Shown in pieces: positions 1-64,000 of a stretch of 64,000 bases of DNA (position 1 is the stretch's first letter; every line of letters begins with the position of its first letter). A program made the translations under genes and the position numbers. The stretch covers positions 33,914,001 to 33,978,000 of the forward strand of contig OZ024747.1 of assembly GCA_964016885.1 (NCBI GenBank), written 5' to 3'. The notes under the pieces were generated by a model. It did no database searches. It had not been told where the DNA came from and saw only the letters and a list, made by a program, of their open reading frames with translations. The stretch is from Eledone cirrhosa (lineage: Eukaryota).

Positions 1-663
1 GATCGTAATACATGGAGAAAGACTGTATATGAGGGAAAAGTTGCCTTTGAGGCATCTCGAATCGCACACGAGAAAGTAAAGTGGGATGTGAGGAAGGGCA
101 TTGCTGTTGCACTTCCAGACGGCGAGGGTCCTCCTATGGTGCTGATATGCAGCGTCTGTGCGAGACTCTGCCTAAGCAAAGCTGGACTCGAAAGTCATCT
201 TCGCAGTCATAAAGTAAGACCAGTGGTTGACTACCAGGCTGCTGTTGGAGATGCTACTTATCATGCTTGCCAAACATGTGGTAGAGAATGTAAATCAGCA
301 GGAGGGCTCAAGCGACATGCAAAAGAACACGAACTCCAACCACAGCCGACTATTCCCAGTGAATGTTTTGGTTGCCGACTCTGTGCAAGACATTTTAGAT
401 CATTGGCTGGGTTAAAAAGGCACATTCGATCGCAGCACTGTTAGTTGCTATCGTGTGTGTGCGTGTAGATATGCTTATGTGCGTGCGTATGTGTGTATAT
501 ATATATGAATATGTATATTATTATTGTTGTTGTCGTTATTATTATTATTGCTATTATTATTATTATTATTATTATTATTTTTATTTTATTTTATTTTATT
601 TATTTATTTATTTTTTTCCTTCTCGTGCAATGGCCATACTCGATAACGAGGGGCAGCCATCAT
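1..663 (+). mobile_element. 3' end of RTE-type LINE with three C-terminal C2H2 zinc fingers and 3' UTR/tail
   Basis: Frame reads ...RNTWRKTVYEGKVAFE (typical RTE C-terminus), then CSVC..LESHLRSH, CQTC..LKRHAKEH, CRLC..LKRHIRSQH (ORF 88-444). Terminal motif tggccatactcgataacgaggggcagccatcat (631-663) recurs at ~5318, ~7377(-) and ~30226. Confidence 0.8.
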
Positions 664-1351
664 ATGCATAAGATAAGTATATAGGTTCAACAATCTGGCA
701 GGAAGGTGTGTGTTGCTGACGATGGCTAATGAGCTTGAAACTGGTACAGCGTTCCTTTGTCAGTGTTGAACAAGCGAGCAACGATGGTTGCTGGACACTG
801 CGGCTTAATACGGGATGTTTGTTTACAAACACACCGAACATTATAATAAATGTGCGGTGAATCCATACGTACATATATATATATATATGTGCATGTATGT
901 ATATATATATACATACTACTGTACGTCTGTATACATATATGTATGTACGTATACATACTTATATTTAAGTAACAGCCGTACTAAGAGTGAGAAATGAAAT
1001 TTCGTTTAATTTTTTCGGTTTATCGTTTTCGGTGCACCCGGCCGATTAACCCACTCGATATGCAAATTGGGCCGTTAATATGCATAAGGTAAGTATATAG
1101 GTTCAACAAGCGAGCAACGATGGTTGCTGGACACTGCGGCTTAATACGGGATGTTTGTTTACAAACACACCGAACATTATAATAAATGTGCGGTGAATCC
1201 ATACGTACATATATATATATGTGTGCATGTATGTATATATATATACATACTACTGTACGTCTGTATACATATACGTATGTACGTGTACATACTTATATTT
1301 AAGTAACAGCCGTACTAAGAGTGGGAAATGAAATTTCGTTTCATTTTTTCC

Positions 1352-1356
<5 letters not shown>
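663..1356 (+). repeat. HHR repeat family A, locus 1 (tandem; second monomer lacks the ribozyme)
   Basis: Direct repeat 774-1020 / 1110-1356; same family at 44835-45755 and 62525-63510. Confidence 0.85.
711..751 (+). ncRNA. Type I hammerhead ribozyme, family A
   Basis: tgttg CTGACGA tggct-aatg-agctt GAA ACTGGT A cagcg. Stem I tgttg/cagcg, stem II hairpin, near-palindromic stem III, GUA cleavage triplet. Confidence 0.8.
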
Positions 1357-1399
<43 letters not shown>

Positions 1400-5256: not shown

Positions 5257-5665
5257 TTTAATTTTTTTATTTATTTAATTAAATTTATTTATTTATTTGT
5301 CTATTTTTTTCGTGCAATGGCCATACTTGATGATGAGGGGGCAGCCATCATGTATGTATATATATATATGTTTGGATTCTGTCGATCGATTGGTTATTGA
5401 TGAGGCGATACCCGCTGATGAAGCCGCATAAGCCGATTGTGCATTGTTGCATAATATATGCAGACAGATGGTGCAGTGCACCTTACTGCTGCATTAGTGC
5501 GGCATAAACTCGAGTCTGGGAACCTTATAAGCACCCGTTTTACGTGTGTTGTGTTGAGGCAAATAACTATGTGTATACTCTGGTAATGTATCTTACATTG
5601 CCCTTTGAGTGCGCTGAGATACAACCGGTATTGGCATTGGTAAATATGCTGGGTCCGTCAACCCT

Positions 5666-9989: not shown

Positions 9990-12900
9990 AGGAGAAAGGA
10001 AAATATTTTTAAGGATCAGTTTTTCTTTTCTTTTTTTCTTTCTTTGATTCAGGGGAGGTAAATGTGATTGGCAAAAGTAGGGTTATAAAAGAAATTATAT
10101 TTTTGGAATATGGTTTTAGAGAGTATGAGTGTGTATGTATGTGAGTGTATATATACAAATACACACATGTGTGTGTGCATGTGTATGTATGTGTATTGAA
10201 GTGTGCTGTGTGTGCGTGCTTTAGTTTGTCTGTCAAGGGTCTCTTTGTAGTGGGAAATTAAAAAAGAAAATCAGAGTAAAGCATCAGTGGTGGCTTTCAA
10301 TCAGGTATTTTTGTAAAATATGTGTATGAGCAATTTCTTTCTTATTTCGTTGTGTATGTGTGTGAAGGAGAGCGAGATAATCTAATGGAGGTGATTATAT
10401 ATTTAATTTTGGTTTAAATCTCTAAAGCCCAGCAAAATCTTCCCACATTAACAAATACCACCCCAGCACTACAAAATGCAACCTCATAACATCAACACTA
10501 TGTATCCCAGAAAGAATCCACCCAGACCACTTGAACTCATTACAGAACCCTTACACAATAACAACTACAACATATACCACCCCCATCACCACATTGACTC
10601 TCATGTAAAAACAAATTAAAGACCCATACAAAACAGACAAACAGACTACAATTACAACCAAAACAACATTCCTTTTTTAGGAACGCGACTGAAATTCCAG
10701 GACACCAGATGGCCCCCACTCATGAGAAACCGAAGAAAATTAATCTTTCAAAATTATCATTAACTAACACACAAATTAACATATTAAGTAAGGGACTGAT
10801 ATTTACACCCACACCACAAAAATCTAACTTCCCCGAAATGAAAGATGACATCATGGAATTCTGCCGAAAACTCAGACTAATAGAATACTTCTCCAATGAC
10901 ACCAACACTGAAGATGAATCAATAGTGAGAAACAAAAGTGATGTATGCCCACAGAAAGGGAGGAACAGAACACTGGACACCTACTGCGAACGCACCATCA
11001 AATTTTACTATGAACAAATCACAAATAAACACAAGAAATCGAACCGCTCTAAACACGAATGGAAATAATTATTCACACTTTGAGATAAGACTGACATAAC
11101 CATCAAAGAACCCGATAAAGGGAGCACTGTGGTCAGTATGGAAACTGACTACTATAGGGACCTGGCACTTAAAATGTTAGACAACAGATACTACGAAAAA
11201 ATAGAAAACTACAAACTAACTAAAACAATGGGTGATCTAGAATTACTACAAAAAATACCGCAATAGCCGAACCACAACAGAATTTGAATACATAAGCCAT
11301 TTTAAATGTAATACAAGTGCTTTCTACGGCTTACCGAAGATCCACAATTGTAAACTCATAAACGATGCACGTGACACTTCGACTAACAAATGCTTACAAT
11401 TAACACCACCAAAATACTTAAAACTCAGACCAATTATAGCAGGCCCTGCATGTGAAACACTCAGACTTAGCAATTTCCCGGACTTCTTACTAAAGCCCTT
11501 CCTAAATCATATACAGAGCTTCATACGGGATGACCTTGATATGCTGAACCACCTACCCAAAACTGTAAGTGAAAACACTATGCTTGTCCCCTTTGACGTA
11601 GTAAACCTTTACACTAACATAACCCATAACTATGGGAATAACGCCAATCCAGTGCTGGCTAGACACTCACCAATCTGAAATACCAACACGCATCAACAAA
11701 ATCTTCATTATTGATGGACTCCGATTTATCGAAGAATCTTTCCTTACACATCTCAAAAATAATTGGAAGATATACCTAGACGATTGCATTATACTATTGC
11801 AAGAAAACATGATTACACTCGCTATTTTCAAAAATATGATAAACAACATTAACAATAACATGTAATTCCCAATGGAATCCAACTCCAAGCAATTAGCCTT
11901 CTTGGATATCCTTATTTTAAAAACAGTACCCACGGACTCCAAACAGTACCTCCTCTTCACATCGAATCACCCAAAACATACAAAACTTAACATTCCATTT
12001 AACTTAGCACCATAGTATCAGGCTCATCTAAGCGGGAACAAAGATTAAATGGACTAAAAACACACTTTAAGAGTCTTCCCACTTGACATAATTAATAACG
12101 GAATAGACAGAGCAAAACACGCACATTTTCATCAACTCAACTACCACCGAAAGCACAGAAACACAAACAATACCTTACCATATGTATCCACGGTCAGCCC
12201 CAGAAATACCGAAATATTCGACCACCTACACAAAAACCTCCCCATTCTATTTAAAGGTGAAAAAAGGAAAGATATCCTAGAAACTCACAAGATCATTAAA
12301 AGTAAAATGCAACCCAAATCACTAAAACACTTTCTTACTAGAACAAATATACACAAAACAGTCTCCAGCCTTACGGTAACAAAATGTGGAAGAACAAACT
12401 GTGGCACATACCTATACATAATTAAAGGACAAATTCACTTGAAACTCAGAGAACCTGATCTACGTAATCACATGCGGTGGTTGTCGACATAACTAAATAA
12501 GGGTGTGTCATTAAGCAAAAAATTGACCATCCATTGCCAACAAATCCGAGACGTAAACACAAGAAAAATCGCCTTAAATAGCCACATTTCAGAGAGTGCA
12601 GGAATGACCCTACCCAACTTTAAAATGATCCCCCTTTACAAGTGCTCCAATTCTTTCACACACCAATAAAGAATAAATAAAAACTATTTATTAACAAATT
12701 TAAACCAAAATTAAATATATAATCACCCCATTAGATTCTCTCTACCCCCCCCCCCCCCCTACACGCACACACACACACCACAAAATAAGAAAGAAATTTT
12801 TCATACACATATTTTCCAAAAATTCCTGATTGAAAGCCACCACTGATGCTTTAGTCTCTCTTTTTTTAATTTCCCACCACAAAGGGACCTGTGACAGACC

Positions 12901-17322: not shown

Positions 17323-17376
<54 letters not shown>

Positions 17377-17378
<2 letters not shown>

Positions 17379-17930
17379 AGGCACATGGCTTAGTGGTTAG
17401 AACATTGGGATTGCAATCGAAAGGTTGTGAGTTCAATTCTCAGACCGGGTGATGTGTTGTTTCCTTGAGCAAGACACTTTATTTCACATTGCTCCAGTTT
17501 ACTCAGCTGTAGAAATGAGATGATAGGGACTGGGGTCACTATCATTCCACTGCAAAGTGGTCGTGGAGGTGCCACGGCAAAAAAACACCCAGCACTCACT
17601 GTAAATGAGGTTGGTGTTAGGAAAGGCATCCAGCTGTACAAATCAAGGGGAGGTCATCTTAAAATATATATATATATATATAGTGGTCGTGGAGGTATAT
17701 ATATATATATATATATATATAGTCGTCGTGGAGGTGCCATGGCAAAAAAGCACCCAGCCCACACTGTAAAGTGGACGTGTAGCCGCCACGGAAAAACAAG
17801 CACCCACCACTCACTGTAAATGAGGTTGGTGTTAGGAAGGGCATCCAGCTGTACAAATCAAGCCAGAATCAGTTCCCGTCCCACCCTTGGAAGCAGGGAA
17901 AAGCGGACATAAAATGATGATGATGATGAT
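17377..17930 (+). mobile_element. tRNA-derived SINE, family 2, RTE-like 3' tail, internal duplication
   Basis: A box tggcttagtgg, B box gagttcaattc, core ccttgagcaagacactt, tail aggaagggcatccagctgta..(gat)n. Confidence 0.85.
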
Positions 17931-30780: not shown

Positions 30781-32970
30781 GAGAATTCCTCTGATGTACA
30801 ATCACTACTTTACAATGAACTCTAATGAAGACGAGAAACTCACCTTTTACAGGTCTTTGAAGGAACTTGTCAAAAAGATTCCTTCAACAGCCAAAATTAT
30901 CCAACTAGCGTTGGCAGGGATTATGAGACTTAGGATGTGATCAGCAGACATGACAGAGGGAAATGTAACAGCAATGGTCTCCTCTTGCTACAGATGTGTG
31001 TGGAGTTAGATTTGTTCATTGCAAGTACAATCTTCCAGCAAAAGGATAAGTTCAAGACAACATGGACAGGGCCATCTTGACAGCATTATAGGCCCCCGGG
31101 CAAAGCAGAGCACTGGGGCCACCACCTACACAACCACTCACAGGAATAAAAATACAAATGGGCCCCCTATCCTCATGGGACCCCTGGGAAACTGCCCAGC
31201 ATGCCCATGCATTAAGACGGCCCTGAACATGGATGCACCCTGGGTCGAAGGTGTGGCATCTGACTGACTATGTTCTTGTGAAGAAATATGACATGCAGGA
31301 TATCAAGCACGTGCGTGTCCTGCATGGTGCAGAGTGCCGGATAGACCATCGTCTGGTGCGCATCAAGGCAAACTTTGTGATCAAACCTCAAACAAGAGCA
31401 AATGGTGTCAAGATTCCAAGGCATTTGAATATAGATTATATGAAAGATGGGGGTGTCAAGGAAGAGCTGCGTCACAGGCTTGAAAACATTGATTGTGTGA
31501 ACAATTGGAATGACTTCAGGAGCTCAGACTATGAGGTTTCAGCAGAGGTCCCTAGCTTTGTCACAAGAAAACACAAGAACTGGTTTGATGAGAATAACCG
31601 GTAGGTCAAGACTCTGCTGGACAGAAAACAAAAGGCACTTGATGCAGTTCTTAAAGGTGTTAGCTCTGTTGGTGACAATTATGAGCATTACAGACAGGTA
31701 AAGAAGAAGGTGCAGGTGAAACACAGGGCCATGCAAAATACCTAGTGGAGCAACAAAGCAGATGAAGTTCAAGTGACATCTGATGGCAACAATGTGAAAC
31801 TGGTGCACTCTATACTCAGAGAGCTGTATGGTCCTTTCAGCTCACAAGTGACACCGTCAAGATCAAAAGATGGCAAGCAGTTACTGCGCGATCCAAAAGA
31901 CATACTCGACAGATGGAGAGATCACTTTGATGAGCTCTTAAACCAGCCATCCCAGTTTGATGAACCAATATGAGTTGAATATGGAGTGAAGCGGGGGGGG
32001 GGGGGGGCATTCTGGCTCCAACTCTGTTTTCCCTATATTCTACGATAGTGTTTCTCATATCATTCAGGAAAAATTGTTCACATGTAGTTTACATCTGGTA
32101 TTGCACTTCGGGAAGGTTGTTCAAGATCAGCCACTTTGGTTCAAGCACAAAGGTATTAACATCTATAATCCAAGAGTTTTTGTATACAGATGACTGCAAT
32201 CTTTTTGCACACTCACAAAATGACATGCAGCATATTATGAACTCTTTTTCTAAAGCTTGCAGCACTTTGGGCCTCACGATTAGCTTGGAAAAGACTGTTG
32301 TGATGTATCAACCAGCCCCTGGAAAAGAATACACTACTGCAAGTGTATACATGTATGGAAAGAGGCTAAATGTTGCTGACAAGATGGTTTACCTTGGTAC
32401 TATGTTGAACAATTTATGCCCACTTGATGAGATATGCTTAACAATCAAGAAAACGAGTGATGATTTTGGACAGTTGCATGAACGTTTATGGTCCAGACGA
32501 GGTATCACTATTTAAACCAAGGTATATCTGACTTGTGTCATCTTCTCTTTGCTTTATGCTTGTCAAATGTGGGTCACATACAGAATGCACCTCAAGGAAC
32601 TGGAGATTTCACCAACAATCTCTTCATAAGTTACTTGGGGTGCAATGGGAAATGTTCGTCAGTGATTTGGAAGTTCTCAAATGGAGCAGGTGCGTGACAA
32701 TAGAGAGCATAATCTTTCAGCATTGGTTGAGGTGGTACAGACACGTGGTCCAAATATCTGATGATTGTATTCCAAAGCTACTCGAAGAAGGTCATATCAC
32801 TGAGATGTCCAGTGGCTACACGTTTAACTGGAGTGGCAGAGCAGCAGGGTGCAAAAGGAAGGCAGGTGTGGCTTTTGTAGTGAACACGTCTTTCGTGTCG
32901 ACACATGACTAGTTTCCAAGTGGCATCAGTGATCATCTCCTGTCAATGAGAATTCCTCTGATGTACAATT
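30781..32970 (+). mobile_element. RTE LINE (APE + RT), deleted and rearranged
   Basis: TWMHPGSKVWHLTDYVLV, DHRLV, RWRDHFDELLNQP, EFLYTDDC, LRWYRHVVQISDDCIPK, GYTFNWSG..GVAFVV. Confidence 0.9.
31067..31225. mobile_element. hAT-type MITE inserted in the RTE element
   Basis: TIR cagggccatctt/aagacggccctg; perfect 8-bp TSD aacatgga (31059-66, 31226-33). Confidence 0.85.
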
Positions 32971-33040: not shown

Positions 33041-33225
33041 CATTCATACATATACATACATATACATTCATGCATAAATACAGACAAATAACAATGTTGT
33101 CTCTGATGGAGATGAAGCAAGAGTGTATTTGAATACATATAAAACTGAGATAACTCATTGCAAGAATAGCCATTAAAACAGCTAAATGATGTTAAAGACA
33201 GCGATGGACAAAAATGCCTCAGATG

Positions 33226-33770
33226 CCAGAGGTCAGCAACCAGTGGTCAACAGAGAGACCATCCATAAGGTCGGTGACAGGTAGATGATATATGTCTTAG
33301 AGAACAGAGGTCAGTGACCAGTGGTCAACAGAGAGACCATCCAGAAGGTGGGTGACAGGTAGATGATATATGTCTTAGAGGACAGAGGTCAGCGACAAGT
33401 GGTCAACACAGAGACCATCCAGAAGGTCGGTGACAGGTAGATGGTATATGTCTTAGAGGACAGAGGTCAGCAACCAGTGGTCAACAGAGAGAGACCATCC
33501 ATAAGGTCGGTGACAGGTAGATGATATATGTCTCAGAGGACAGAGGTCAGTGACCAGTGGTCAACAGAGAGAGACCATCCACAAGGTGGGTGACAGGTAG
33601 ATGATATATGTCTCAGAGGACAGAGGTCAGTGACCAGTGGTCAACAGAGAGACCATCCACAAGGTGGGTGACAGGCAGATGATATATGTCTCAGAGGACA
33701 GGGACCAGTGGTCAGTGGTTGGTCAACAGAGAGACCAACCACAAGGTGCGTGACAGGTAGATGAAATATA
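33226..33770. repeat. Minisatellite, ~78-80-bp unit, about 7 copies
   Basis: cagaggtcagYRaccagtggtcaacagagagaccatccaNaaggtSggtgacaggtagatgatatatgtctYagagga. Confidence 0.95.
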
Positions 33771-39543: not shown

Positions 39544-42500
39544 GTGTTACAGAGGGTGTGGGCAAGAGAAGGAAACACACAGAGACAACAAGTTTCTATA
39601 AAAGAAGTTGACAGAGAGGAGGTTAGAGAGAGAGAGATGCTGTGTTTGATACTGTATGCATATGTGTGGAAATAAGAGGGGAAGGAAAGCAATAACTATT
39701 AACATGTGTGCGTGTGTTCCACAGAAAGTAAAAACTATCAATATGTGTGTGCATGTGTGTACGTGCATGTGAGCATGTGTGCGTTTGCGTGTGTGTGTGA
39801 GTCTGCATGTGTGTGCACGCTTGCATGCGTGTACCCATTTGCGTGCGTGTGTGCGTTTGCATGCGCACGTGTGTGTGTGGGCGGCGTTCCACAATCACCA
39901 TTTATTTCAATCACTCTTGTGAAGATATTCATGTAACGTTCAGTCATTTTTCCATTTAATCCTCATTTTAATTTTCAAAAAAGTTTCTGAGAAAAATGTT
40001 CTCACCCTCTTCAAGAGGAGACGGGGTAGATGTAGACGATCAGTATTCTACTGTGAAGCAAAGATGAGTACAGGTAGCCAGAGCAAGGTCACTAGAGTCC
40101 CCAGCACAACGACAGAAAAGACATGAAAACGACAGGAGGAGAGCTGCTGCACACAGGGCCAGTGAGTCACAAGAGGCAAGGGAAAACAGTTAGAACAATT
40201 ACGTCAACAAAATGCAACCCACAGGAGCCAAGAATCAAAAATAGAAAGAGAAAAATGTTTAACGGATGCTAGACAAAGTCAAGCTGCCAGAGTTACCAAT
40301 GGGGCGTAAGCGTATTGATCAAGAAAGTGGTGAATACGTTTGACAAAAGAGTTGCATTTTTCAAGGGAACTTGGAAGAGATCAGCTTTCAACTATGATCT
40401 AAAACATGATTATTCTACAGAGACATTGACTGATTTTGAAGAAATGTCAAAAGAGTGCAATTTTTGTAAAGGAAAGAAATGGGAAAGAGAAACCACTACT
40501 ATGTGTTGTGATGGAGGAATGGTTGTTTTACCGACGTTTGGTACACCTCCAGATACTTTGAAGGCATTGCTTTTAGGAAACACACCAAGGAGCACGTATT
40601 TCTGAAAAAGCATTAGGAATTATAATCCTGCTTTCCAGGTGACATCCTTTGGTAGCAATATTATAAGAGAAGGGAACATGAAGCTAACTTTTAAAGTTTA
40701 TGGTCAAATAATCTTCAGTTTTCACAGCTATATTTTGTGGCAAATTACAAGGAGCAGGCTTTGCAACGTTTATTTAACCTTCCAAATTTGAAAGAAGAGT
40801 TAATCTTTGATTTGCAAGATATGTTGCATGCAAAGAATAGCTACATCAGAAGCTTCAAGTGTGCATTAGAAGCTGCGCCACCCACTGAATACAAGATAGT
40901 TATTGATGCAGAGAAAAAGCCTATTCCGGAACACAGAGGCCACAAACATGCTCCTACCCCAAACGAAGTAGTAGCAATTATTACAGGCAATGAGTATGGG
41001 AAGAGATGTTATTCAAGGAAGAGGAAATAAGATGCAGAGGATAAATGCTACAAACCGATCATATCACCCGATCATATGATACTCCAGTAGCTATTAATCT
41101 GTGTATTTGGCCAAGATGGATAAAGAAAAAACAGATCTTAAAACAAGAACTCCTGCACTGACAAAAACAATAAGCTGCATGGAATTCTATGTTTACCTTT
41201 TCATATTAAGAAAACAAAACTTCAATATTCTTTATCGTTCATGTGAGCGCTTCCACCAATTTGCAGTTGATATGTATGCAAAAATTGAAGGAGAAAGGCT
41301 TCTTTACATTGGAACACATCATAAAGATCTCTGTGCACCAGACTACATTCACCTGAGAGATGCAATCAGAAATGAAGGAGCGTTGGCTGCTGATAACATT
41401 GGACAACTTTGTGTTATTCTTCTATCAAGCTTTACAGAAAGTCCACGGTATATGCATGAGCATACCCAAGATACACTTACATGTCAGACACTATGGTCGT
41501 CCAGACCTCTTCATTACATTCACATGTAACCCAGCATGACATGAAGTAAAGAGTGAGCTTTATCATCATCAGGAACACAAAGATTGCCATGACATTATTG
41601 CTAGGATGTTCAGAAAGCTGATGAATCTACTAAAAAATGGTGAAGTCTTTGGACCAATCAAATGTGACATGTATACGATGAATAGCAAAAATGAGAATTG
41701 CCACATGCCCACATTTTGATTTGGTGCCATGAAAAACTTCAGCCAAATGATTTTGATCTATTTATCTCTGCTGAACTACCTGATCCACAGCAAGATCATT
41801 TACTGCATGAAATTGTCAAGTCCCAGATGTTTCATAGGCCCTGTGGTTCAATTAATCCATCCTCCCCATGCATGAGGGATAATAAGTGTACTACCAATGT
41901 CCCTTTGTACAAGAAACCTAAACTGGAGAATATGGCTACCCCCTTTACAAGAGAGGAAAATCTGGGCATGGTGGATTCACTTTGAAAGAAAAAAATGAGA
42001 AATGGGCAAGAATTCATCATTGACGATCGGTGGTTTGTACCCTATTGTCCTCTTACAAAAGTTTTCAAAGCCCATATCAATGTTGAATTCTTCAACTCTT
42101 TTAAGTCTATTAAGTATGCTTGCAGATATATAAACAATGGTTTAGATAATGCAACATACATTCCTATGCAGAATGGCAGTCAGCAGATAAATAAAAAGAC
42201 AAAGTTGCACAGTATGAAAGAGGAAGATACATCAGTAGCAATGAGGCATTTTGCTACATCTCCAATTTTCCCATTCATGAGAGGCACCCAGTCATCATTC
42301 ATCTCAGTGTCCATCTAGAGAATGGCAAAAGGGTTATCTTTACAAAACAAACAGCCTTCCAACTAGCACTTTCTCCAAAATAAACTACCTTTACTGCCTT
42401 TTTTAAGTTGTTTCAAGAAGATGAAGGTGCAAGAAAACTCCTTTACCTAGAATTACCCAACTATTACACCTGGAGAAACAATAAATGGCACAAGACGACC

Positions 42501-44460: not shown

Positions 44461-44804
44461 TATCATCATTTCATCATTTCATTTTACGTCCGCTTTACCC
44501 TGCTTGCAAGGGTGGTACGGGAACTGATTCTGGCTTGATTTCTACAGCTGGATGCCATTCCTAACACTAACCTCATTTACAGTGAGTGCTGGGTGCTTTT
44601 TTGCCGTGGCACTTCCACGACCACTTTAAAGTGGAATGATATGGACCCCAGTCCCTATCATCTCATTTCTACAGCTGAGTAAACTGGAGCAATGTGAAAT
44701 AAAGTGTCTTGCTCAAGGAAACAACACATCACCCAGTCTGAGAATTGAACTCACAACCTTTCGATTGCAAGACCGATGCTCTAGCCACTAAGCCATGTGC
44801 CTCC
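44461..44804 (-). mobile_element. SINE family 2, full length
   Basis: Reverse complement of the 17377 copy. Confidence 0.88.
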
Positions 44805-45063
44805 ATATATTTATATATATGTACATATCAATATATATATATATGTAAGTATGTATGTATACGTTCATACATATATGTATACAGACGTACAGTAGTATGT
44901 ATATATATACACACATGCACACATATATATATATGCACGTATCGGTTTACCGAACATTTATTATAATGCTCGGTTTGTTTGTTTGTAAACAGACAAACAG
45001 CCCGAATTACGCCGTACAGTGTTTAGGCAACCACGTCATTTGTTGTTCAACACTGACACAGGA

Positions 45064-45106
45064 ACGCTGTACTAGTTTCAAGCTTATTAGCTATCGTCAG
45101 CATCGT
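45064..45106 (-). ncRNA. Type I hammerhead ribozyme, family A
   Basis: acgatg CTGACGA tagct-aata-agctt GAA ACTAGT A cagcgt. Confidence 0.82.
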
Positions 45107-45460
45107 ATACCTTCCTGCCAGATGGTTGAACGTCTGCAAACGTTTACAAACAAACCGAGCATTATAATAAATGTTCGGTAAACCGATACGTGCATATATA
45201 TATATATGTGTGTATATATATATACATACTACTGTACGTCTGTATACATATATGTATGTACGTATACATACATACTTACATTTAAGTAAGTGCCGTACTA
45301 AGAGTGAGAAATGAAATTTCGTTTCATTCTATTCCATTTATCGATTTCGGTGTGCCCGGCCGACTGAACTCACTCGATATGCAAATTAGGCTGCTCAGCC
45401 GTTAATATGCATAAGGAAAGTTTATACTTTCAGACGTTCAACCATCTGGCAGGAAGGTAT

Positions 45461-45503
45461 ACAATGCTGACGATAGCTAATAAGCTTGAAACTAGTACAT
45501 CGT
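45461..45503 (+). ncRNA. Type I hammerhead ribozyme, family A
   Basis: acaatg CTGACGA tagct-aata-agctt GAA ACTAGT A catcgt. Confidence 0.82.
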
Positions 45504-45752
45504 TCCTGTGTCAGTGTTGAACAAAAAGGTGAGGTGGTTGCCTAAACACTGTACGGCTTAATTCGGGATGTTTGTTTGTTTACAAACAAACCGAGAATTA
45601 TAATAAATTCTCGGTAAACCAATACGTGCATATATATATGTGTGTATATACATACTACTGTACGTCTGTATACATATATGTATGTACGTATACATACATA
45701 CATTTAAGTAAGTGCCGTACTAAGAGTGGGAAATGAAATTTCGTTTCATTCT

Positions 45753-45812
<60 letters not shown>

Positions 45813-48759: not shown

Positions 48760-51450
48760 TTTGAAAAACCTAAAATAATCAACCTTTCAAATACAAACTT
48801 CTCAGCCCAATAAATTTAAATTCTCTCCAAAGGACTGAAATTCACACCAACACCATAATACTCTAACCTGAATGAGATAAATGACGATATCTCACACATC
48901 TGTAGAAAATTACGTCTCACAGAAGAATCTTTTGACAAGGAGAATAACGACCAATCAATTGTATGGAATAAAAGCAGCTACAACCCAACAAAAGGTAGAA
49001 ACAGAGTTCTGGACAAATTTTGTGACCACATAGCTAGTTTCCCATACTATGAACTACCTCAACGTAAACCCAAACCCAACACGAGTCGAAGGGAATGGGA
49101 GATTATCCATGAACTACAAAACAATACGGACATTATAATTAAGGAAGCGGACAAGGGAAGTACTGTCGTCATTAAGGATGCTGAACAATATAAACATTGT
49201 ATGTTCTCTCTCTTACAAAATACTAACTACTATGAAAGAGTAAAAAACTACCAGCAATCAAAAACGATGACCAGATTAAACACATTCATTTGCCGATACC
49301 AGGAAGACTTAACTAAAAAGGAGCGCGATTATTTAACACAGTTTGAATACAAAACCAGCAACCTTTACGGACTTCCGAAAATCCACAAGTGTAAAATAAT
49401 TAACGATGCCTGTAAACAATCAACCTCAACCTGCGTGAACACACAATACCCCACAGACCTTAAATTAAGACCAATTGTAGCGAGCCTACAATGTGAAACA
49501 CACAGACTAAGCAACTTTATAGACATACTACTAAAACCAATTCTCAAACACATACCAAGCCTTGTAAGAGACGATCTGCACCTCTTAAACCACTTCCCCA
49601 AACATGTCAAAAACAACACTATTATTGTGTCTTTCGATATAGTGAATCTCTACACAACGATCCCACACCAATACGGACTAGAAGCAATAGGATTCTGGTT
49701 AGAGAAATATCCCAATGAGATACCTGACAGAATAGAATAAACCTTCATCACCGAGGGATTACAATTTATTTTACAGAACAACTTTTTTGATTTCGATGGC
49801 AGCACTTACAAGCGGGGACTGCGATGGGTACAAAAGCCGCTCCAACTTATGCCAACTTAGTCATGGCATACTTGGAAGTCCAGATATATGAACAGTCCAA
49901 ATCAAAATACGGATTGAACTTCCACAAATATTTATCAGAGAATTGGAACGATACTTGGATGATTGTCTCATTCTTTGGCCTCACACACTCGACCAACTAA
50001 ATGATTTCAAAAATTGTATTAACGGCATCAATAACCACATCCAATTCACAGTGGAATACAGCCAAGATCAACTCCAATTTCTGGACATCTTAATCTTAAA
50101 AAAAGACACAAATTTTGAAACTGACATACACTACAAACCAACAGATTCCAAACAATACCTGCTATTCATCTCCAACCATCCAAAGCACATGAAGACGAAC
50201 ATCCCTTTTAACCTAGCAAGAAGAATTTGCACAATTGTCTCCAATTATGAAACGCGAAATAAAAGACTTCAAGAATTAAAGGAAATTCTACTCGAAAGAC
50301 AGTACCCACCATTACTGATAAATAATGGCATAGAAACGGCTAAAGCAATAGGCATTGATGAATTACGAAAACAGAAACAAATTCAAGGTACGTCCAATAT
50401 TCTATCATATATCTCAACACACAACCCAAGAAATGCGGAAGCTTACAACACTATTCACAAGAACATCCCACTATTGAAACAAGACCCAAGAATTAAAAAA
50501 AGCCCTTGAAACACACAAAATAATCAAAAGCAAAATACAACCGAAATCACTAAAAACATTACTCACCAATGCCAAATTACCTACCACAAACCCACAACCA
50601 ACTGTCAAAAAATGTGGTCGCTCTAATTGTGGAACCTGCACTCACCTCATTGAAGGCAACGCGTATACATTTCAATCAGGACAAAATTTTGCTGTAAAAA
50701 ATCACTTTACTTGCTCATCAAAAAATCTATTTTATGCCATTAAATGTAAAGGATGCAGTGAAGATTATATAGGACAAACTAAAGTCACACTCAGAAACAG
50801 AAGACAATTCATTGCCAACAATTACGAGACCCTACCACGAGACAGATACCACTAAGTGCACATCTAGACATATGCGCAAATAATAAGACACCAAAATTCC
50901 AAGTCTTCCCATTTTATCTTTGCGCTGACAATACAACCGACGAAATACGAATAAATAAGGAAAATATGTTTATTCAAAAATATAGACCAGCATTAAATAT
51001 GGTTTAATATACATTATGTCAACACCATAACATGCTTAGCACACACCCCCCACACACATAACTCCCTCCTCCATTTCTACTAACAGAATCATTTTCCTAC
51101 ACACACACAGACACACAAAAAAATATATATTCTCTCCATATTAACATGCTAACCATACTCTCACACACATATACACACACACATAACATCCATACACATA
51201 CACAACTCCCTCCCACATTTCTTCTAATAGAATCATCTTCCTACACACACACGCACACACACAAACAAGCACACAGATAAACATACATATCTCTACTTTC
51301 TTTATTTCAATAGAAAGTCTGAATTCTAACACCCCAGCGAACCAGCCATATTCACTGAACCAGAACAATTCTCCCCATCCTATTTTTCTTGACCATTATC
51401 TTTTGTTTGGCACAAAATTATCTAAAAGGCTACAAAATAAATTCCCAAAT
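48760..51450 (+). mobile_element. Penelope-like element 2 (Neptune-type), 5' truncated
   Basis: LSKGLKFTPTP, IIKEADKG, YGLPKIHK, SFDIVNLYTTIP, GTAMGTKAAPTYANL, RYLDD, CGRSNCGTC, NLFYAIKCKGCSEDYIGQT (GIY-YIG with CCHH); coding ends ~51005. Confidence 0.93.
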
Positions 51451-51539: not shown

Positions 51540-54500
51540 ATGAAACGATCAACACATACTTTACGAATAACACAAACCTAATTCAAACAAACGAGGAGCC
51601 ATGTAGCACAGATACACTAGCAACATACAAAATTAAAAACCAAATAATACCACAATTGAACACATCACTCAGAGACAGAAAATTCTCCGTTTGGAAGATG
51701 ATCCAAAACAACAACAAAGCGGAGCTTTATGAAAAATGGTTCAATTCATCCCCATTAATTCATACCCGCAAACTACAGATTAAACCCATCCCAGATGAAC
51801 CCGAGACGCAAAGACGACTAAGGGAATGAATGGCTCTGGAATGAATGAAGAGAGGAATTGAACTTGTAAAATTGAGGGCTCGGACAAATGAGGATAAAAT
51901 AAAATCCCTCGACAAAGAGATCAACCAAGAAATTAACATAAAGACTCAAGGCACCAACCTAGAAAATATCTTTAAACTATGGATAGAGAATTGCAACAAG
52001 GAACTGAAATCCCTTCAACGCTGGGAAAACAGCGAAACTTGGTTTTTGAACTATGGAACAATCTTTCAAACAGAATACGCTTCTAACAACTCCTTCATAA
52101 AAACAAGAAAACCTAAACACCACTCAGACACAGTTCGACAACCAAAAAAAAAAAAAAAAAAACACAAAATTCTCTCCTACCAAAAAAAGAAGGCAACACC
52201 TTACCTTTACCTCTTAATCCAACCACGCAGCAACTACGCGGATACCCATGCAACTTACAAAGAAATAAGATACAATTACCTCCAGGATGGACATTACAAA
52301 TTCCCTCCACGATCCCGAACCTTCAATAACAACAGCAGGGAACAACACAACCACACGAGACAACCCAGCATCAGCAACCGACACAATTTCCTTAATCATT
52401 TTTTAGACCCAGTACACAGACACTGTGAAACGAGATGACACAAGACATACAGGAGAGACAAAAAGTAATACAAGTCATACATTTAGCCACTAAAGAACTA
52501 ACAACCGACCAAATCAACATACTCTACAAAGGGCTGAAATTTACACCGACGCCCAAGCATCCAAACTACTCCGAAACGAATGAAGACATTGCAGAGTCTG
52601 TAGAAAATTAAGACTTAGTGAGGAACTACACAACCAGTACAGTGAGGACGATTCACCAGCGAGAAGTAGAAGCAACTACACCCCATCAAAAGGTAAGAAC
52701 CCATTTCTAGACCAATTCTGTGAACACATTACAAATTATCCATATCAACACCTACACAGACATAAACACCAGCCAAACTTCAACAAGAAAAAATGGGATG
52801 AGCTGAACAGATTAAAGAATGATAAAACTACAACAATCAAAGAGGCAGATAAAGAGAGTGCCGTAGTACTTAAGGAGACAGAATATTATACAACCCCAGT
52901 ACTCTCATCTTTAGAAGACGAAACATACTACGAAAAGTCTCAATACTACAGCCAGCAGAAAATAATGAGAAACCTAAAAACTCTGATAAACTTTTTAAAG
53001 AGAAGGACTTACCGACAACGAATACAACTATATCACTAACTTCAAAAGCAAATGCAGCCTTTTCTATGGTAACCCTAAGATACACAAAAGCGAAAATATA
53101 AGTAAGGCATGCAAGGAAGCCACAGATATATTCATCAATGTCCCCTCACCTAATGACCTCAAATTAAGGCCGAAAATAGCAGGCCCCACATTCGAAACCC
53201 ACCGCATCAGCAACTTCCTTTATATCCTATTAAAACCATTCTTGAGACACATTAAAAGCTACATAAGGGACGACCTTCATAGGCTCAACCACCTCCCCAA
53301 AACATTTAATAATAAACATAACCTACTAGTGTCTTTTGATGTAGTCAACCTATATTTCAATATCCCACACAACCTAGGAATAGAAGCAATCCAATTCTGG
53401 TTAGAAAATTACCCCAATGAACTCCCACACCGCACCATAAAAGAATTCGCAATAGAAGGGCTAACATTTATCTTGGAGAATAAGTAATTTGTATTCAATG
53501 CCAAATCCTACACACAGAAATCCAGGACTGCCATGGGCGCGAAAACGGCCCCCTCTTACGCCAACCTTGTTATGAGCTATCTGGAAATCACCCTCTACCG
53601 AAAAGTACTAGATAAATACGGAATGTCTTTCTACCTCTACATAGAAAGTAACTGGAAGAGATATCTGGATGATTGTTTCATCCTCTGGAATGAAAGTATG
53701 GAAAGACTTATTGAATTTAAAACACTTCTAAATGGACCCAACACAAACATTCAATTTACAATGGAATACAGCCATGACTTGAGCAACTTCCTTTCCTCGA
53801 CATCCTTATACAGAAAACTAACAACAAAATAGAAACAGACATATGCTATAAGCCCACAGACTCCAAACAGTATCTTCCATTCAACCGATGCCACCCGAGA
53901 CACACTAAAATAAACATACCTTACAACCTAATCAAAAGGATCAGTACAATAGTATCTAATAGGAACACCTGCTACATACGACTAGAAGAACTAAAGGACA
54001 CACTCATTAGCAGAAACTACCCACCACCACTAATTAACAATGGATTCCAACGTGTCCTAAAACTCTGTATCGAGGATCTTAGACATCCTAAACTAAAGAA
54101 TGAATTGCAACTGAAAGCTCTACCTTACATCTCCATACACTGCCCGCTTAACAATGAGGCATTCGACACCATCACCCAGAACATACCTTTACTAAAAAGA
54201 TACATAAGAATGAATCAAATCCTTCAAACACACAACATTATAACGAGCAAACGACAACCCAAATCAATGAAAAACAACCTTACACAGGCCAAAGATCAGC
54301 CGATCTTAACAATGAATCCTACAGTAAAACAATGCGGAAGACCCAACTGTGGTATATGTATCAACCTAATCAAGGGATCGGAGTTCTACTTCAAACAAGG
54401 ACAACCCTTTACAGTTAAAATATAACTTCACATGCGCATCAGAAAATCTGATTTATATGTTGACTTGCTCAGGTTGACGAGAGCACTATGTAGGAGAGTT

Positions 54501-55030
54501 CATAGATCCCAAATTAAAATACGGGAATACAGAAAAATATCACAGAGTAAACACATAGCCATCTGTCGCTCTAATGAATAACCCAACTTCAGAATTTTCC
54601 CCCTCTACAAATTTAAAGACAACGCTCCCTACATCCAGCATATTAGCAAAGAATCACACTTTATCATTAAATACGAATCCCTTTTAAATACATCTACTTC
54701 AGATGAAACTGCAGCTTTAACATTACCACCATGGGCAAATTAAGGAAGATATATTTAGAAACATTCCCACTGCAGGTAAATTTTTAACACCAATGGACAA
54801 ACTAAGAATGCCAGCATTACAGAAAGAGATACTAAGAATACTATTTTTAGAATCAATTACACCTTCGGTCAACTCTAAGGTTACTCAATCATTTAAACCA
54901 ATCCCACGGACAGCTCCCTTTACCATTATCAACAGTGATACTATTACTACTACACTTCCCCGTCGTCCCCTTCTGCTTCACCCACCCTTTCTCCATCTTC
55001 CCCTTGCCACACCTATTCCCTGTCCCTCCC

Positions 55031-62497: not shown

Positions 62498-62530
<33 letters not shown>

Positions 62531-62786
62531 GGAAAAAAATGAAACGAAATTTCATTTTCCACTCTTAGTACGGCTGTTACTTAAATATAAGTATGTATAC
62601 TTACATACATTTAGGTATACAGACGTACAGTATTATATATATATACATACATGCACACATATATATGTACGTATGGATTCACCGAACATTTATTATAATG
62701 CTCGGTGTGTTTGTAAACAAACATCCCGTATTAAGCCGTAGTGTCTAGCAACCATCGTTGCTCGTTTTTTTAACACTGACAAAGGA

Positions 62787-62829
62787 ACGCGGTACTAGTT
62801 TCAAGCTTATTAGCTCTCGTCAGCAACGT
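62787..62829 (-). ncRNA. Type I hammerhead ribozyme, family A
   Basis: acgttg CTGACGA gagct-aata-agctt GAA ACTAGT A ccgcgt. Confidence 0.82.
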
Positions 62830-63265
62830 ATACCTTCCTGCCAGATGATTGTACTTCTGAAAGTATATACTTTACTTATGCATATTAACGGCTGAGCAGC
62901 CTAATTTGCATATCGAGTGGGTTAATCGGCCGGGTGCACCGAAAACGATAAATGAAAAAGAATGAAATGAAATGAAATTTCTCACTCTTAGTATGGCTGA
63001 TACTTAAAAATGAATATGTATACGTACATACATATATGTATACAGACGTACAGTATAATGTATATATGTACATACATGCACACATATATATATATATATA
63101 TGTACGTATGGGTTTTCCGTACATTTCGTTTCATTTTTTCCGTTTACCGTTATCGGTGCGCCCGGCCGACTATCTCACTCGATATGCAAATCAGGCTGCT
63201 CAACCGTTAATATGCATAAGTAAAGTATATACTTTTAAACATTAAATCTTATGGCAGGAAGGTAT

Positions 63266-63301
63266 ACGGTGCTGACGATAAGCTTGAAACTAGTTCATCG
63301 T
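63266..63301 (+). ncRNA. Family A hammerhead with 7-nt deletion in stem II (likely inactive)
   Basis: acggtg CTGACGA taagctt GAA ACTAGT T catcgt. Confidence 0.6.
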
Positions 63302-63577
63302 TCGTTTGTCAGTGTTGAACAAAAGGGCAACGATGGTTGCTAAACAATGTACGGCTTCATTCGGGCTGTTTGTTTACAAACAAACCGAATATTATAATAA
63401 ATGTTCGGTAAACCGATACGTACATATATATACGTGTGCATGTATGTATATATCTACATACTACTGTACGTCTGTATACATATATGTATGTACGTATACA
63501 TACTTATATTTAGTTTTATGTATATATATTATATATATATATATATGCAAGTTGAAGGAAGACGTAGTAGAAGAAGA

Positions 63578-63962
63578 TCATCATTATTTTACGTCTGCTT
63601 TGTCCTGTTTGCAAGGGTGGGACGGGAACTGATTCTGGCTTTATTTCTACAGCTGGATTCCCTTCCTAACACCAAGCCGCCAACCTCATTTACAGTGAGT
63701 GCTGGGTGCTTTTTTCCCTGTGGCGCCTACACATCCACTTTACAGTGTGAGCTAGGTGCTCTTTATTTTGCCGTGGCACCTCCACCACCACTTTGCCGTG
63801 GACTGATAGGGACCCCAGTCCTATCATCTCAATTCTACAGCTGAGTAAATTGGACCAATTTGAAATAAAGTATCTTGCTCAAGGAAACAACACATCACCT
63901 GGTCCGAGAATTGAACTCACAACCTTTCGATTTCAAGGCCAATGCTCTATCCACTAAGCCAT
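63578..63962 (-). mobile_element. SINE family 2
   Basis: Reverse complement of the 17377 copy. Confidence 0.85.
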
Positions 63963-64000
63963 ATATATATATAATGTAATGAATCTTTCTTGAAATCTGA

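Follow-up and report, generated by a model that had tools for sequence, protein, structure and literature searches.

The family A locus

The window, meaning the whole 64,000-nt stretch of Eledone cirrhosa DNA analysed here, lies on a 94-Mb contig of a 3.0-Gb genome and holds three loci of a short repeat termed family A, the number given in the initial annotation (Table 1). The monomer is 436 nt long at the focal locus (45142-45577, with the repeat resuming at 45578), in agreement with the length proposed earlier, and each unit carries, as had also been stated, one hammerhead motif and no credible open reading frame (ORF), the longest ATG frame being a TA/CA-rich antisense frame of 108 amino acids. 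The tandem organisation claimed for the family requires qualification. Arrays of 2 to 31 units do occur elsewhere, but the focal locus is not a dimer; it consists of a direct arm of 1.43 units and, head-to-head with it, an inverted arm that the earlier description had missed. Two hammerheads in direct tandem are found at none of the three window loci. Given that the focal locus has a single sense hammerhead, release of a monomer is impossible there, and with one sense hammerhead and a mutated TATA box the locus is a dead-end product.

Contigs from four sequencing runs, the kind of which is unrecorded, cover 45272-45645 in organism A, with low depth in organisms B and C, and include neither a spanning piece nor molecule ends. 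The interspersed repeat that borders the short 3′ end has further window copies at 17334-17647 and 63578-63973. Elsewhere the window contains a Helitron_like_N fragment (41098-41529), an RVT_1 fragment (31979-32515) and a 78-bp tandem array (33214-33769).

Table 1. Features of the family A loci, numbered from the first nucleotide of the window
Feature	Position	Strand	Remarks
Family A locus 1	662..1357	+	Older subfamily; second unit with internal deletion
Family A locus 2 (focal)	44840..45763		Two head-to-head arms; TA repeats at both outer ends
Family A locus 3	62525..63522	.	Arms head-to-head, the left one with the long end and the right one with the short; damage in both hammerheads
Direct arm, focal locus	45142..45763	+	1.43 units: monomer 45142-45577 plus first 200 reference positions again; ends at long 3′ site
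Inverted arm, focal locus	45139 to 44840	-	5′-truncated, head-to-head; starts downstream of promoter block; ends at short 3′ site
TA-rich tract at short 3′ end	44807..44852	.	Tail of neighbouring interspersed repeat 44471-44847
Tail between short (~45284) and long (~45341) 3′ sites	45285..45341	+	Hairpin 45308-45325; second copy 45707-45763
(TA)n at long 3′ end	45757..45812	.	Target microsatellite
Octamer block ATGCAAATTAG	45379..45389	+	Same motif at -76 to -78 of U6, U6atac and MRP genes in this genome
TCAGCC, PSE-like core	45395..45400	+	At -56 of predicted start; TCAG at -56 to -58 in host U1/U2
TATA-like box	45421..45426	+	At -30; A>T at 45422 here, TATATA in nearly all other copies
Predicted transcription start (A after C)	45451	+	Inferred; 47 nt upstream of predicted cut
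Type I hammerhead, direct arm	45461..45503	+	Stem I 45461-66/45498-503; core CTGACGA 45467-73; GAAA; stem II with U.U base and AAUA loop; palindromic 2-bp stem III
Predicted cut, direct-arm hammerhead	after 45497	+	Between GUA and C
Type I hammerhead, inverted arm	45064..45106	-	Core 45100-45094; predicted cut after 45070; one A.G mismatch in stem I

The hammerhead motif

Type I hammerhead motifs lie at 716, 45467 and 63272 on the plus strand and at 45100 on the minus strand, and the four stem I variants described in the initial annotation (tgttg/cagcg, acgatg/cagcgt, acaatg/catcgt and acggtg/catcgt) are indeed present at these four motifs. Stem II of the copy at 63272 is 7 nt short, and the minus strand holds one more motif, the fifth, in damaged form near 62790-62826. 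The core, GAAA and stem III had been described as nearly invariant; in some 55 pieces of family A, however, the core does not exceed its flanks in conservation, most columns around the motif being 95-100% conserved. An invariant core within the family consequently says little, and the structural evidence comes from the comparison of subfamilies. Among ten copies chosen across subfamilies and related families, 9 of the 13 helix pairs change on both sides and 93% of cells are paired, as against only 23-46% in slid controls; the covariation score was reached by none of 500 shuffles, a control that related sequences can beat. Among the covarying changes, U.U is replaced by C-G at the foot of helix II, and A-U by U-A in both helix I and helix II.

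The fold of the hammerhead alone is not unusually stable in either window copy (z about 0.4 for both). At gathering score Rfam matched neither the window nor seven related loci; no hammerhead family was among 106 weak matches, and the weak microRNA matches were dismissed as TA/CA-repeat noise. Self-cleavage of family A RNA is predicted with high confidence. According to PMC7229834, the axolotl ribozyme HHR_Amex2, of which the monomer cleaves weakly and the dimer well, also has a U.U base. A good-looking hammerhead motif may still be inactive, since 8 of 9 Xenopus retrozyme dimers failed to cleave in vitro (10.64898/2026.07.22.740005).

Copy number, arrays and sister families

The exact hammerhead pattern has 34,888 matches in the 3.0-Gb genome, sister families included, and the reversed pattern has none. 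Among the first 100 matches listed, 57 are of family A type and 43 belong to the sister family A2 (32 of them in one locus), a split that implies roughly 20,000 A-type motifs. Forty evenly spaced 10-kb stretches gave four clear loci, one fragment and two weak repeat-only matches, from which the number of loci may be put at the order of 30,000, with a wide error. The high copy number originally supposed is thereby borne out, as is the non-autonomous character of the element: no credible ORF was found, and arrays of ORF-less units exist. Direct arrays, the longest of which the initial annotation had proposed to look for together with the copy number, have 2, 3 and 7 units in family A, 4-5 in subfamily A3 and up to 31 in A2. 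Most loci are dispersed, with one or two units each, and units diverge by 0-0.6% inside arrays as against 4-27% between arrays. By sequence criteria, family A is a real and abundant family of the non-LTR retrozyme type. A single family A locus recurs no fewer than 14 times as part of a long segmental duplication, at a spacing of at least 100 kb (G000:C20:3.5-5.2 Mb and C27; L013-L026).

The A2 unit of 467 nt is collinear with that of family A and 61% identical to it (alignment score 238, against a shuffle maximum of 49). A2 is the younger of the two, its top matches being 98-99% identical to each other. Its 14.5-kb array comprises 31 units and an inverted arm (L224, L225, L256-L257; G000:C1:5738324-5752446). 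There, 15 of 21 variant alleles are common to several units in blocks (five of them being one 5-nt deletion), and the shared alleles often recur at distances of 3, 4 or 7 units, a pattern that suggests duplication in blocks at the DNA level; local DNA amplification appears to have enlarged this array. Star-like descent of its units from one monomer circle was considered and found unsupported, the alleles being shared in blocks. The variants of the 7-unit family A array are mostly singletons (7 of 9). Predicted circular folds are stable both for the family A monomer (z = -5.0) and for A2 (z = -12.2; 60 shuffles each), in part owing to a TA/CA-rich palindrome. Rolling-circle copying of units is a possibility.

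A promoter-like block

The longest block identical in A and A2 is TATGCAAATTAG. In family A, TCAGCC follows the octamer at 16 nt and TATATA at 42 nt. The start sites of repeat families were placed at TATA+30, so that with the TATA box at -30 TCAG falls at -56 and +1 on an A after C. Among host genes, two single U6 genes, a U6 array, one U6atac gene and the MRP gene all have the octamer block at -76 to -78 and a TATA box at -30; the block is missing in 5 of 10 distinct U6/U6atac/MRP upstream regions, and those five U6/U6atac copies may be pseudogenes. No octamer was seen among 10 U1 loci and the 5 of 12 U2 loci examined. TCAG stands at -56 to -58 in all eight distinct U1/U2 upstream regions, with a TATA-like box near -30 in seven, and all eight start at an A after a pyrimidine. 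The exact combination of octamer, TCAG and TATA occurs in no host gene examined, the octamer and TATA being 42-43 nt apart in the repeats as against 46-48 nt in Pol III genes. In the U6 array on C19 (L142, L143, L145-L148), 6 of the 11 fetched copies have a SINE-like insertion in the TATA region, by which the upstream element is parted from the gene.

In sequence, the geometry matches that of a Pol II snRNA-type promoter, as in host U1 and U2, with a PSE-like core at -56, a TATA-like box at -30 and a pyrimidine before the initiating A. It does not match the U6 type (octamer at -77, G start, no T-run), given that the octamer is 5 nt closer and the start an A. Runs of T4-T7 lie inside all eight array units examined, several of them just before the end sites, and none lies in the window monomer; their presence in the array units favours Pol II over Pol III. 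In 61 family A pieces, conservation is 0.96-0.97 in the promoter blocks, 0.94 in the spacer and 0.84-0.90 in the flanks. Family A probably possesses an snRNA-type Pol II promoter of its own.

The block also extends beyond the family. The pattern of octamer plus TATA has 23,440 matches genome-wide, compared with 669 for a control. Among the first 100 matches listed, 23 are not family A, and 17 regions cover them. A hammerhead-like motif lies 88-100 nt downstream in 10 of these 17 regions, as against 17 of 20,000 random windows. The ten regions represent three hammerhead families (six, three and one region) retrieved by the promoter motif alone, and several of the other seven look, by eye, like decayed hammerhead motifs.

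Several related repeats were encountered. An older family with the same promoter geometry has the U3-A8 hammerhead core UUGACAA (L269, L272, L273, L277), while family X is a short hammerhead repeat with octamer, TCACC and TATA (L266, L267, L278-L282), an inverted pair being found in L267. At L275:1275 and L276:1353, U6-type spacing (octamer at -77, TATA at -30, G start) is followed by a decayed hammerhead-like motif without an Rfam match, possibly a Pol III-driven hammerhead RNA. A 310-nt hammerhead repeat at L220:7000-8000, in tandem and inverted copies, has no octamer in the 140 nt upstream of its core. Two more hammerhead-like families are represented at window 55746 (minus strand), L032 and L216 and at L053, L105, L204 and L220; the latter sits about 210 nt past the end of the ORF of a distant Penelope-like element (PLE).

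Anatomy of insertions

The ends of family A were studied in 130 arms, a search-biased and imperfectly de-duplicated sample. Of their 3′ ends, 44 fall at a short site (about reference position 143), 46 at a long site (about 200), 39 elsewhere and one at a locus edge. Family A therefore has two fixed 3′ sites about 57 nt apart, and the corresponding tail is about 70 nt in A2. TA repeats join 77 of the 90 short- or long-site ends. Head-to-head pairs combine the two sites: 20 of the 23 classifiable pairs among 38 in family A and all 11 classifiable among 19 in A2 are short plus long, or 31 of 34 retrozyme pairs overall, and the three exceptions (short plus short) all go back to a single duplicated locus. 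In both A and A2, the predicted circular folds place a hairpin immediately 5′ of each end site.

The 5′ ends of family A arms are scattered. They show no preference for the cut site, within 15 nt of which 3 of 130 arms begin where about 4-5 would be expected, and no significant enrichment at the predicted transcription start (9 of 130 in a 17-nt window, about 5 expected). That only three arms begin at the cut site suggests that uncut multimers or circles served as templates. Subfamily variants are common to the arms of one locus, diagnostic sites differing at 28 of 167 (17%) between inverted arms and at 10 of 85 (12%) between tandem units as against 37% between loci, which implies that a locus is mostly one event. 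TA targets hide TSDs, and the one candidate, of about 10 bp at L125, was read by eye. Family A accordingly displays the features of PLE-type insertion: two 3′ sites, a tail at one end, an inverted 5′-truncated copy and a microsatellite target. At some insertions both arms border the same flank, inverted (L167:1726-1805/2112-2191, L262:5133-6855), an arrangement expected if a palindromic element was entered at its centre or if target DNA was duplicated in inverted form.

A proposed Neptune-type partner

The genome contains at least two Neptune-type PLE families with many copies and open frames of 775 or 784 amino acids, the Neptune label resting on a Cys-rich linker that we take to be diagnostic. 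Pfam assigns RVT_1 and GIY-YIG domains to the first family, in an intact relative of the window copies. In the window there are three decayed Neptune-type copies (10600-12700, 48760-51004 and 52400-54700), which are 38-93% identical by stretch to the intact relative; Pfam recognised no family in their fragmentary frames. Neptune-2 likewise has two 3′ ends, 41 nt apart, with all 20 classified ends on TA, and of its three head-to-head pairs both classifiable ones are mixed short plus long. Neptune-1, in which the reference contains (TA)n, was left out of the end counts. The terminal repeats of two active Neptune families (L104:6905-6945 and L219:~5625-5665) have a variant hammerhead core, UUGAAAA, with U3-A8 in place of C3-G8; Neptune-2 additionally has GCAA instead of GAAA. 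These variants are identical across many copies.

Similarity between the ends of these elements and family A was sought in several ways. The initial annotation had noticed none to the PLE tails of the window, and none was detected to the window Neptune ends. When family A was compared with the terminal repeats of three autonomous PLE families, none of 15 comparisons came to 4 or fewer of 200 shuffles; a fourth PLE terminal repeat gave 8 of 300 shuffles. A likeness of the long end of family A to the Neptune-2 end was not significant (14 of 200 shuffles), and the idea that family A is the pLTR of the window Neptunes, of the two active Neptune families or of the third PLE was set aside for want of similarity. 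Three PLE proteins were compared by tblastn with 140 loci, a 494-kb set in which duplicates and other families are present; eight loci contained fragments, and no intact PLE ORF was framed by family A. The RT plus GIY-YIG ORF that lies between the pLTRs of an autonomous PLE is absent from family A. The monomer is thus not always attached to a PLE ORF, as the existence of ORF-less arrays of up to 7 (A) and 31 (A2) units makes plain.

Two hybrid loci bring the elements into direct contact. In L283 a family A arm faces an arm composed of a 68-nt family A piece and the endonuclease end of a Neptune, with its 3′ UTR and TA-joined terminal repeat, the remainder of the family A arm being missing downstream of the Neptune part. 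At L284 it is an A2 arm that adjoins a C-terminal Neptune fragment, which lies on the opposite strand. PLE fragments occur in 5 of 40 random stretches of 10 kb, a frequency at which chance placement would hardly yield two such junctions, although shared targets raise the expected number. The hybrids are suggestive of a Neptune link, and could also be neighbouring insertions in shared targets. PLE fragments in L012/L120, L175, L004, L122 and L233 were also considered; they lie nearby and not at the head-to-head junction and were set aside as independent insertions, L012 being the one among them read base by base.

Proposed mechanism and alternatives

The explanation that we find quite probable is that family A is a protein-free 436-nt hammerhead repeat with its own snRNA-type promoter, inserted into (TA)n by the enzyme of a Neptune-type PLE. 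The octamer, TCAG and TATA would, on a fairly confident estimate, direct Pol II to start 47 nt before the cut, as at U1/U2; the transcript of an array would read through the promoter of the next unit, and in this manner an upstream promoter would survive retroposition. Processing by the hammerheads, which very probably cut multimers into unit-length RNA in this model, is perhaps dimeric given that stem III is a weak palindrome. Ligation of the unit RNA into a self-paired circle is possible, with the chances slightly in its favour. For insertion the enzyme would nick both (TA)n strands, and RT would initiate internally on the RNA, at two sites separated by about 57 nt, one per strand, each just 3′ of a predicted hairpin, yielding two 5′-truncated head-to-head arms, one with the short and one with the long end. 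The anatomy of this step is observed directly in the copies, and its attribution to a Neptune-type enzyme is highly likely. As most copies run through the cut site, the template would be an uncut multimer or a circle and not a linear monomer. Long arrays likely grow further by local duplication of DNA.

In a broader and more tentative form of this proposal, at least five diverged hammerhead retrozyme families would be self-sufficient snRNA-like units, SINE-like parasites of Neptune and not derivatives of pLTRs. A dimeric Neptune enzyme, with two fixed start sites used obligatorily one per strand, could then load a retrozyme RNA on one side and its own on the other. This wider reading has somewhat less than an even chance of being right.

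The alternatives differ in which part of the preferred explanation they deny. That family A might consist of pLTR remnants or internal-deletion derivatives of an autonomous PLE not yet found, without an RNA life of its own and with promoter and hammerhead taken from the parent, is an unlikely idea. In its favour stand the insertion features of family A, all of them typical of PLE ends, the hammerheads and promoters that occur in PLE pLTRs, and the Xenopus study, in which 24 of 57 retrozyme families were homologous at their termini to Repbase elements, nearly all of them PLEs (10.64898/2026.07.22.740005). The PLE comparison here covered four families. The idea has to be reconciled, however, with the joining of ORF-less units head-to-tail up to 7 and 31 times, with the tblastn search, in which fragments were found and no ORF framed by family A, and with the examined pLTRs, whose hammerheads are different and whose sequences do not match family A.

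The promoter could also be misread, the same element being transcribed by Pol III from a U6-type promoter or by read-through from outside, with the octamer an incidental POU site. The octamer block is otherwise found here only at Pol III type-3 genes, schistosome hammerhead repeats were reported as Pol III-driven, and retrozymes seem promoterless (PMC6765202, PMC7761336). Against Pol III stand the T-runs of the array units and the TCAG at -56 and A after C at +1, which match U1/U2 and not U6 with its G start, and the spacing is kept across diverged families; this variant is accordingly judged quite improbable. A DNA-based origin, as a MITE with TIRs or a Helitron-like rolling-circle element, or as a satellite with a chance hammerhead-like motif, would accommodate the inverted arms, the TA flanks, the subterminal hairpin and the block-wise amplification of the longest array. 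It is largely excluded by variable 5′ ends and unequal fixed 3′ ends of the same kind as in Neptune-2 copies, by the dispersal of most loci with one or two units, and by helices that co-vary as RNA.

Significance

The retrozyme class is known, and an snRNA-type promoter has a precedent in newt satellite 2. What family A adds is a promoter of its own, as inferred here, and strong anatomical evidence of PLE mobilisation. In the literature covered, which includes few subscription papers, no report was found of such an element in a cephalopod or of the short-plus-long pairing rule. Family A offers testable answers to two gaps in retrozyme biology, the promoter and the mobilising enzyme, that are named in PMC7761336. 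The handles for such tests are a predicted start base, three promoter blocks, two RT start sites and intact candidate Neptune enzymes in the same genome. The pairing rule sharpens the model of PLE insertion, and the family, which has about 35,000 intact motifs, makes up a notable share of the genome. If true, the interpretation of these families as SINE-like parasites would give animal retrozymes both a promoter and a partner, and PLE insertion a general two-site rule.

Comparison with known systems

With the metazoan non-LTR retrozymes of coral, mussel and axolotl, as described in PMC7229834, family A shares a short, low-GC tandem unit with one type I hammerhead and no ORF, thousands of copies, a self-paired predicted circle and a weak palindromic helix III. 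Its unit of 436-500 nt reaches or exceeds the top of their 150-450 bp range, most of its loci have fewer than two units, and the circle is a prediction here. It differs further in its conserved promoter-like block and its PLE-type two-site ends; by contrast, retrozymes seem to be promoterless and without a motif that points to a mobilising partner, according to a 2020 review (PMC7761336). Hammerhead repeats with an internal promoter, like family A, are nonetheless on record in newt satellite 2, with a Pol II snRNA-type promoter, and in schistosomes, with a Pol III promoter (both as cited in PMC2220036 and PMC6765202). The promoter of family A is inferred from host U1, U2, U6, U6atac and MRP genes and combines a U1/U2-type core with the octamer of Pol III genes; unlike those of newt and schistosome, it recurs in several diverged families of an invertebrate genome.

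The closest likeness in insertion is to PLEs, for which PMC8557442 reports partial tandems, an inverted 5′-truncated copy, a tail on one end and microsatellite targets. For one PLE studied in vitro, both target strands were extended, two internal start sites bounded the tail, and hammerhead cleavage was not needed (PMC11167929). Family A shares with the Neptune and Poseidon elements of these two sources 5′ truncation, partial tandems, the inverted copy, the one-end tail, AT-rich or microsatellite targets, two internal 3′ sites, a hammerhead in the repeat and no ends at the cut site. It differs in having no RT/GIY-YIG ORF and no match to the four pLTRs compared, and its tail of about 57 nt (about 70 nt in A2) is longer than the 30-40 nt that the same sources give for PLEs and the 41 nt of Neptune-2 here.

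Vertebrate retrozymes have been linked to PLEs by pLTR homology and co-distribution (bioRxiv 10.64898/2026.07.22.740005), and family A has in common with them the co-occurrence with Neptune, the dispersed monomers and the rarer multimers. Where the vertebrate link draws on pLTR homology, which is absent from family A, it is the anatomy of its insertions and two hybrid loci that point to mobilisation in trans.
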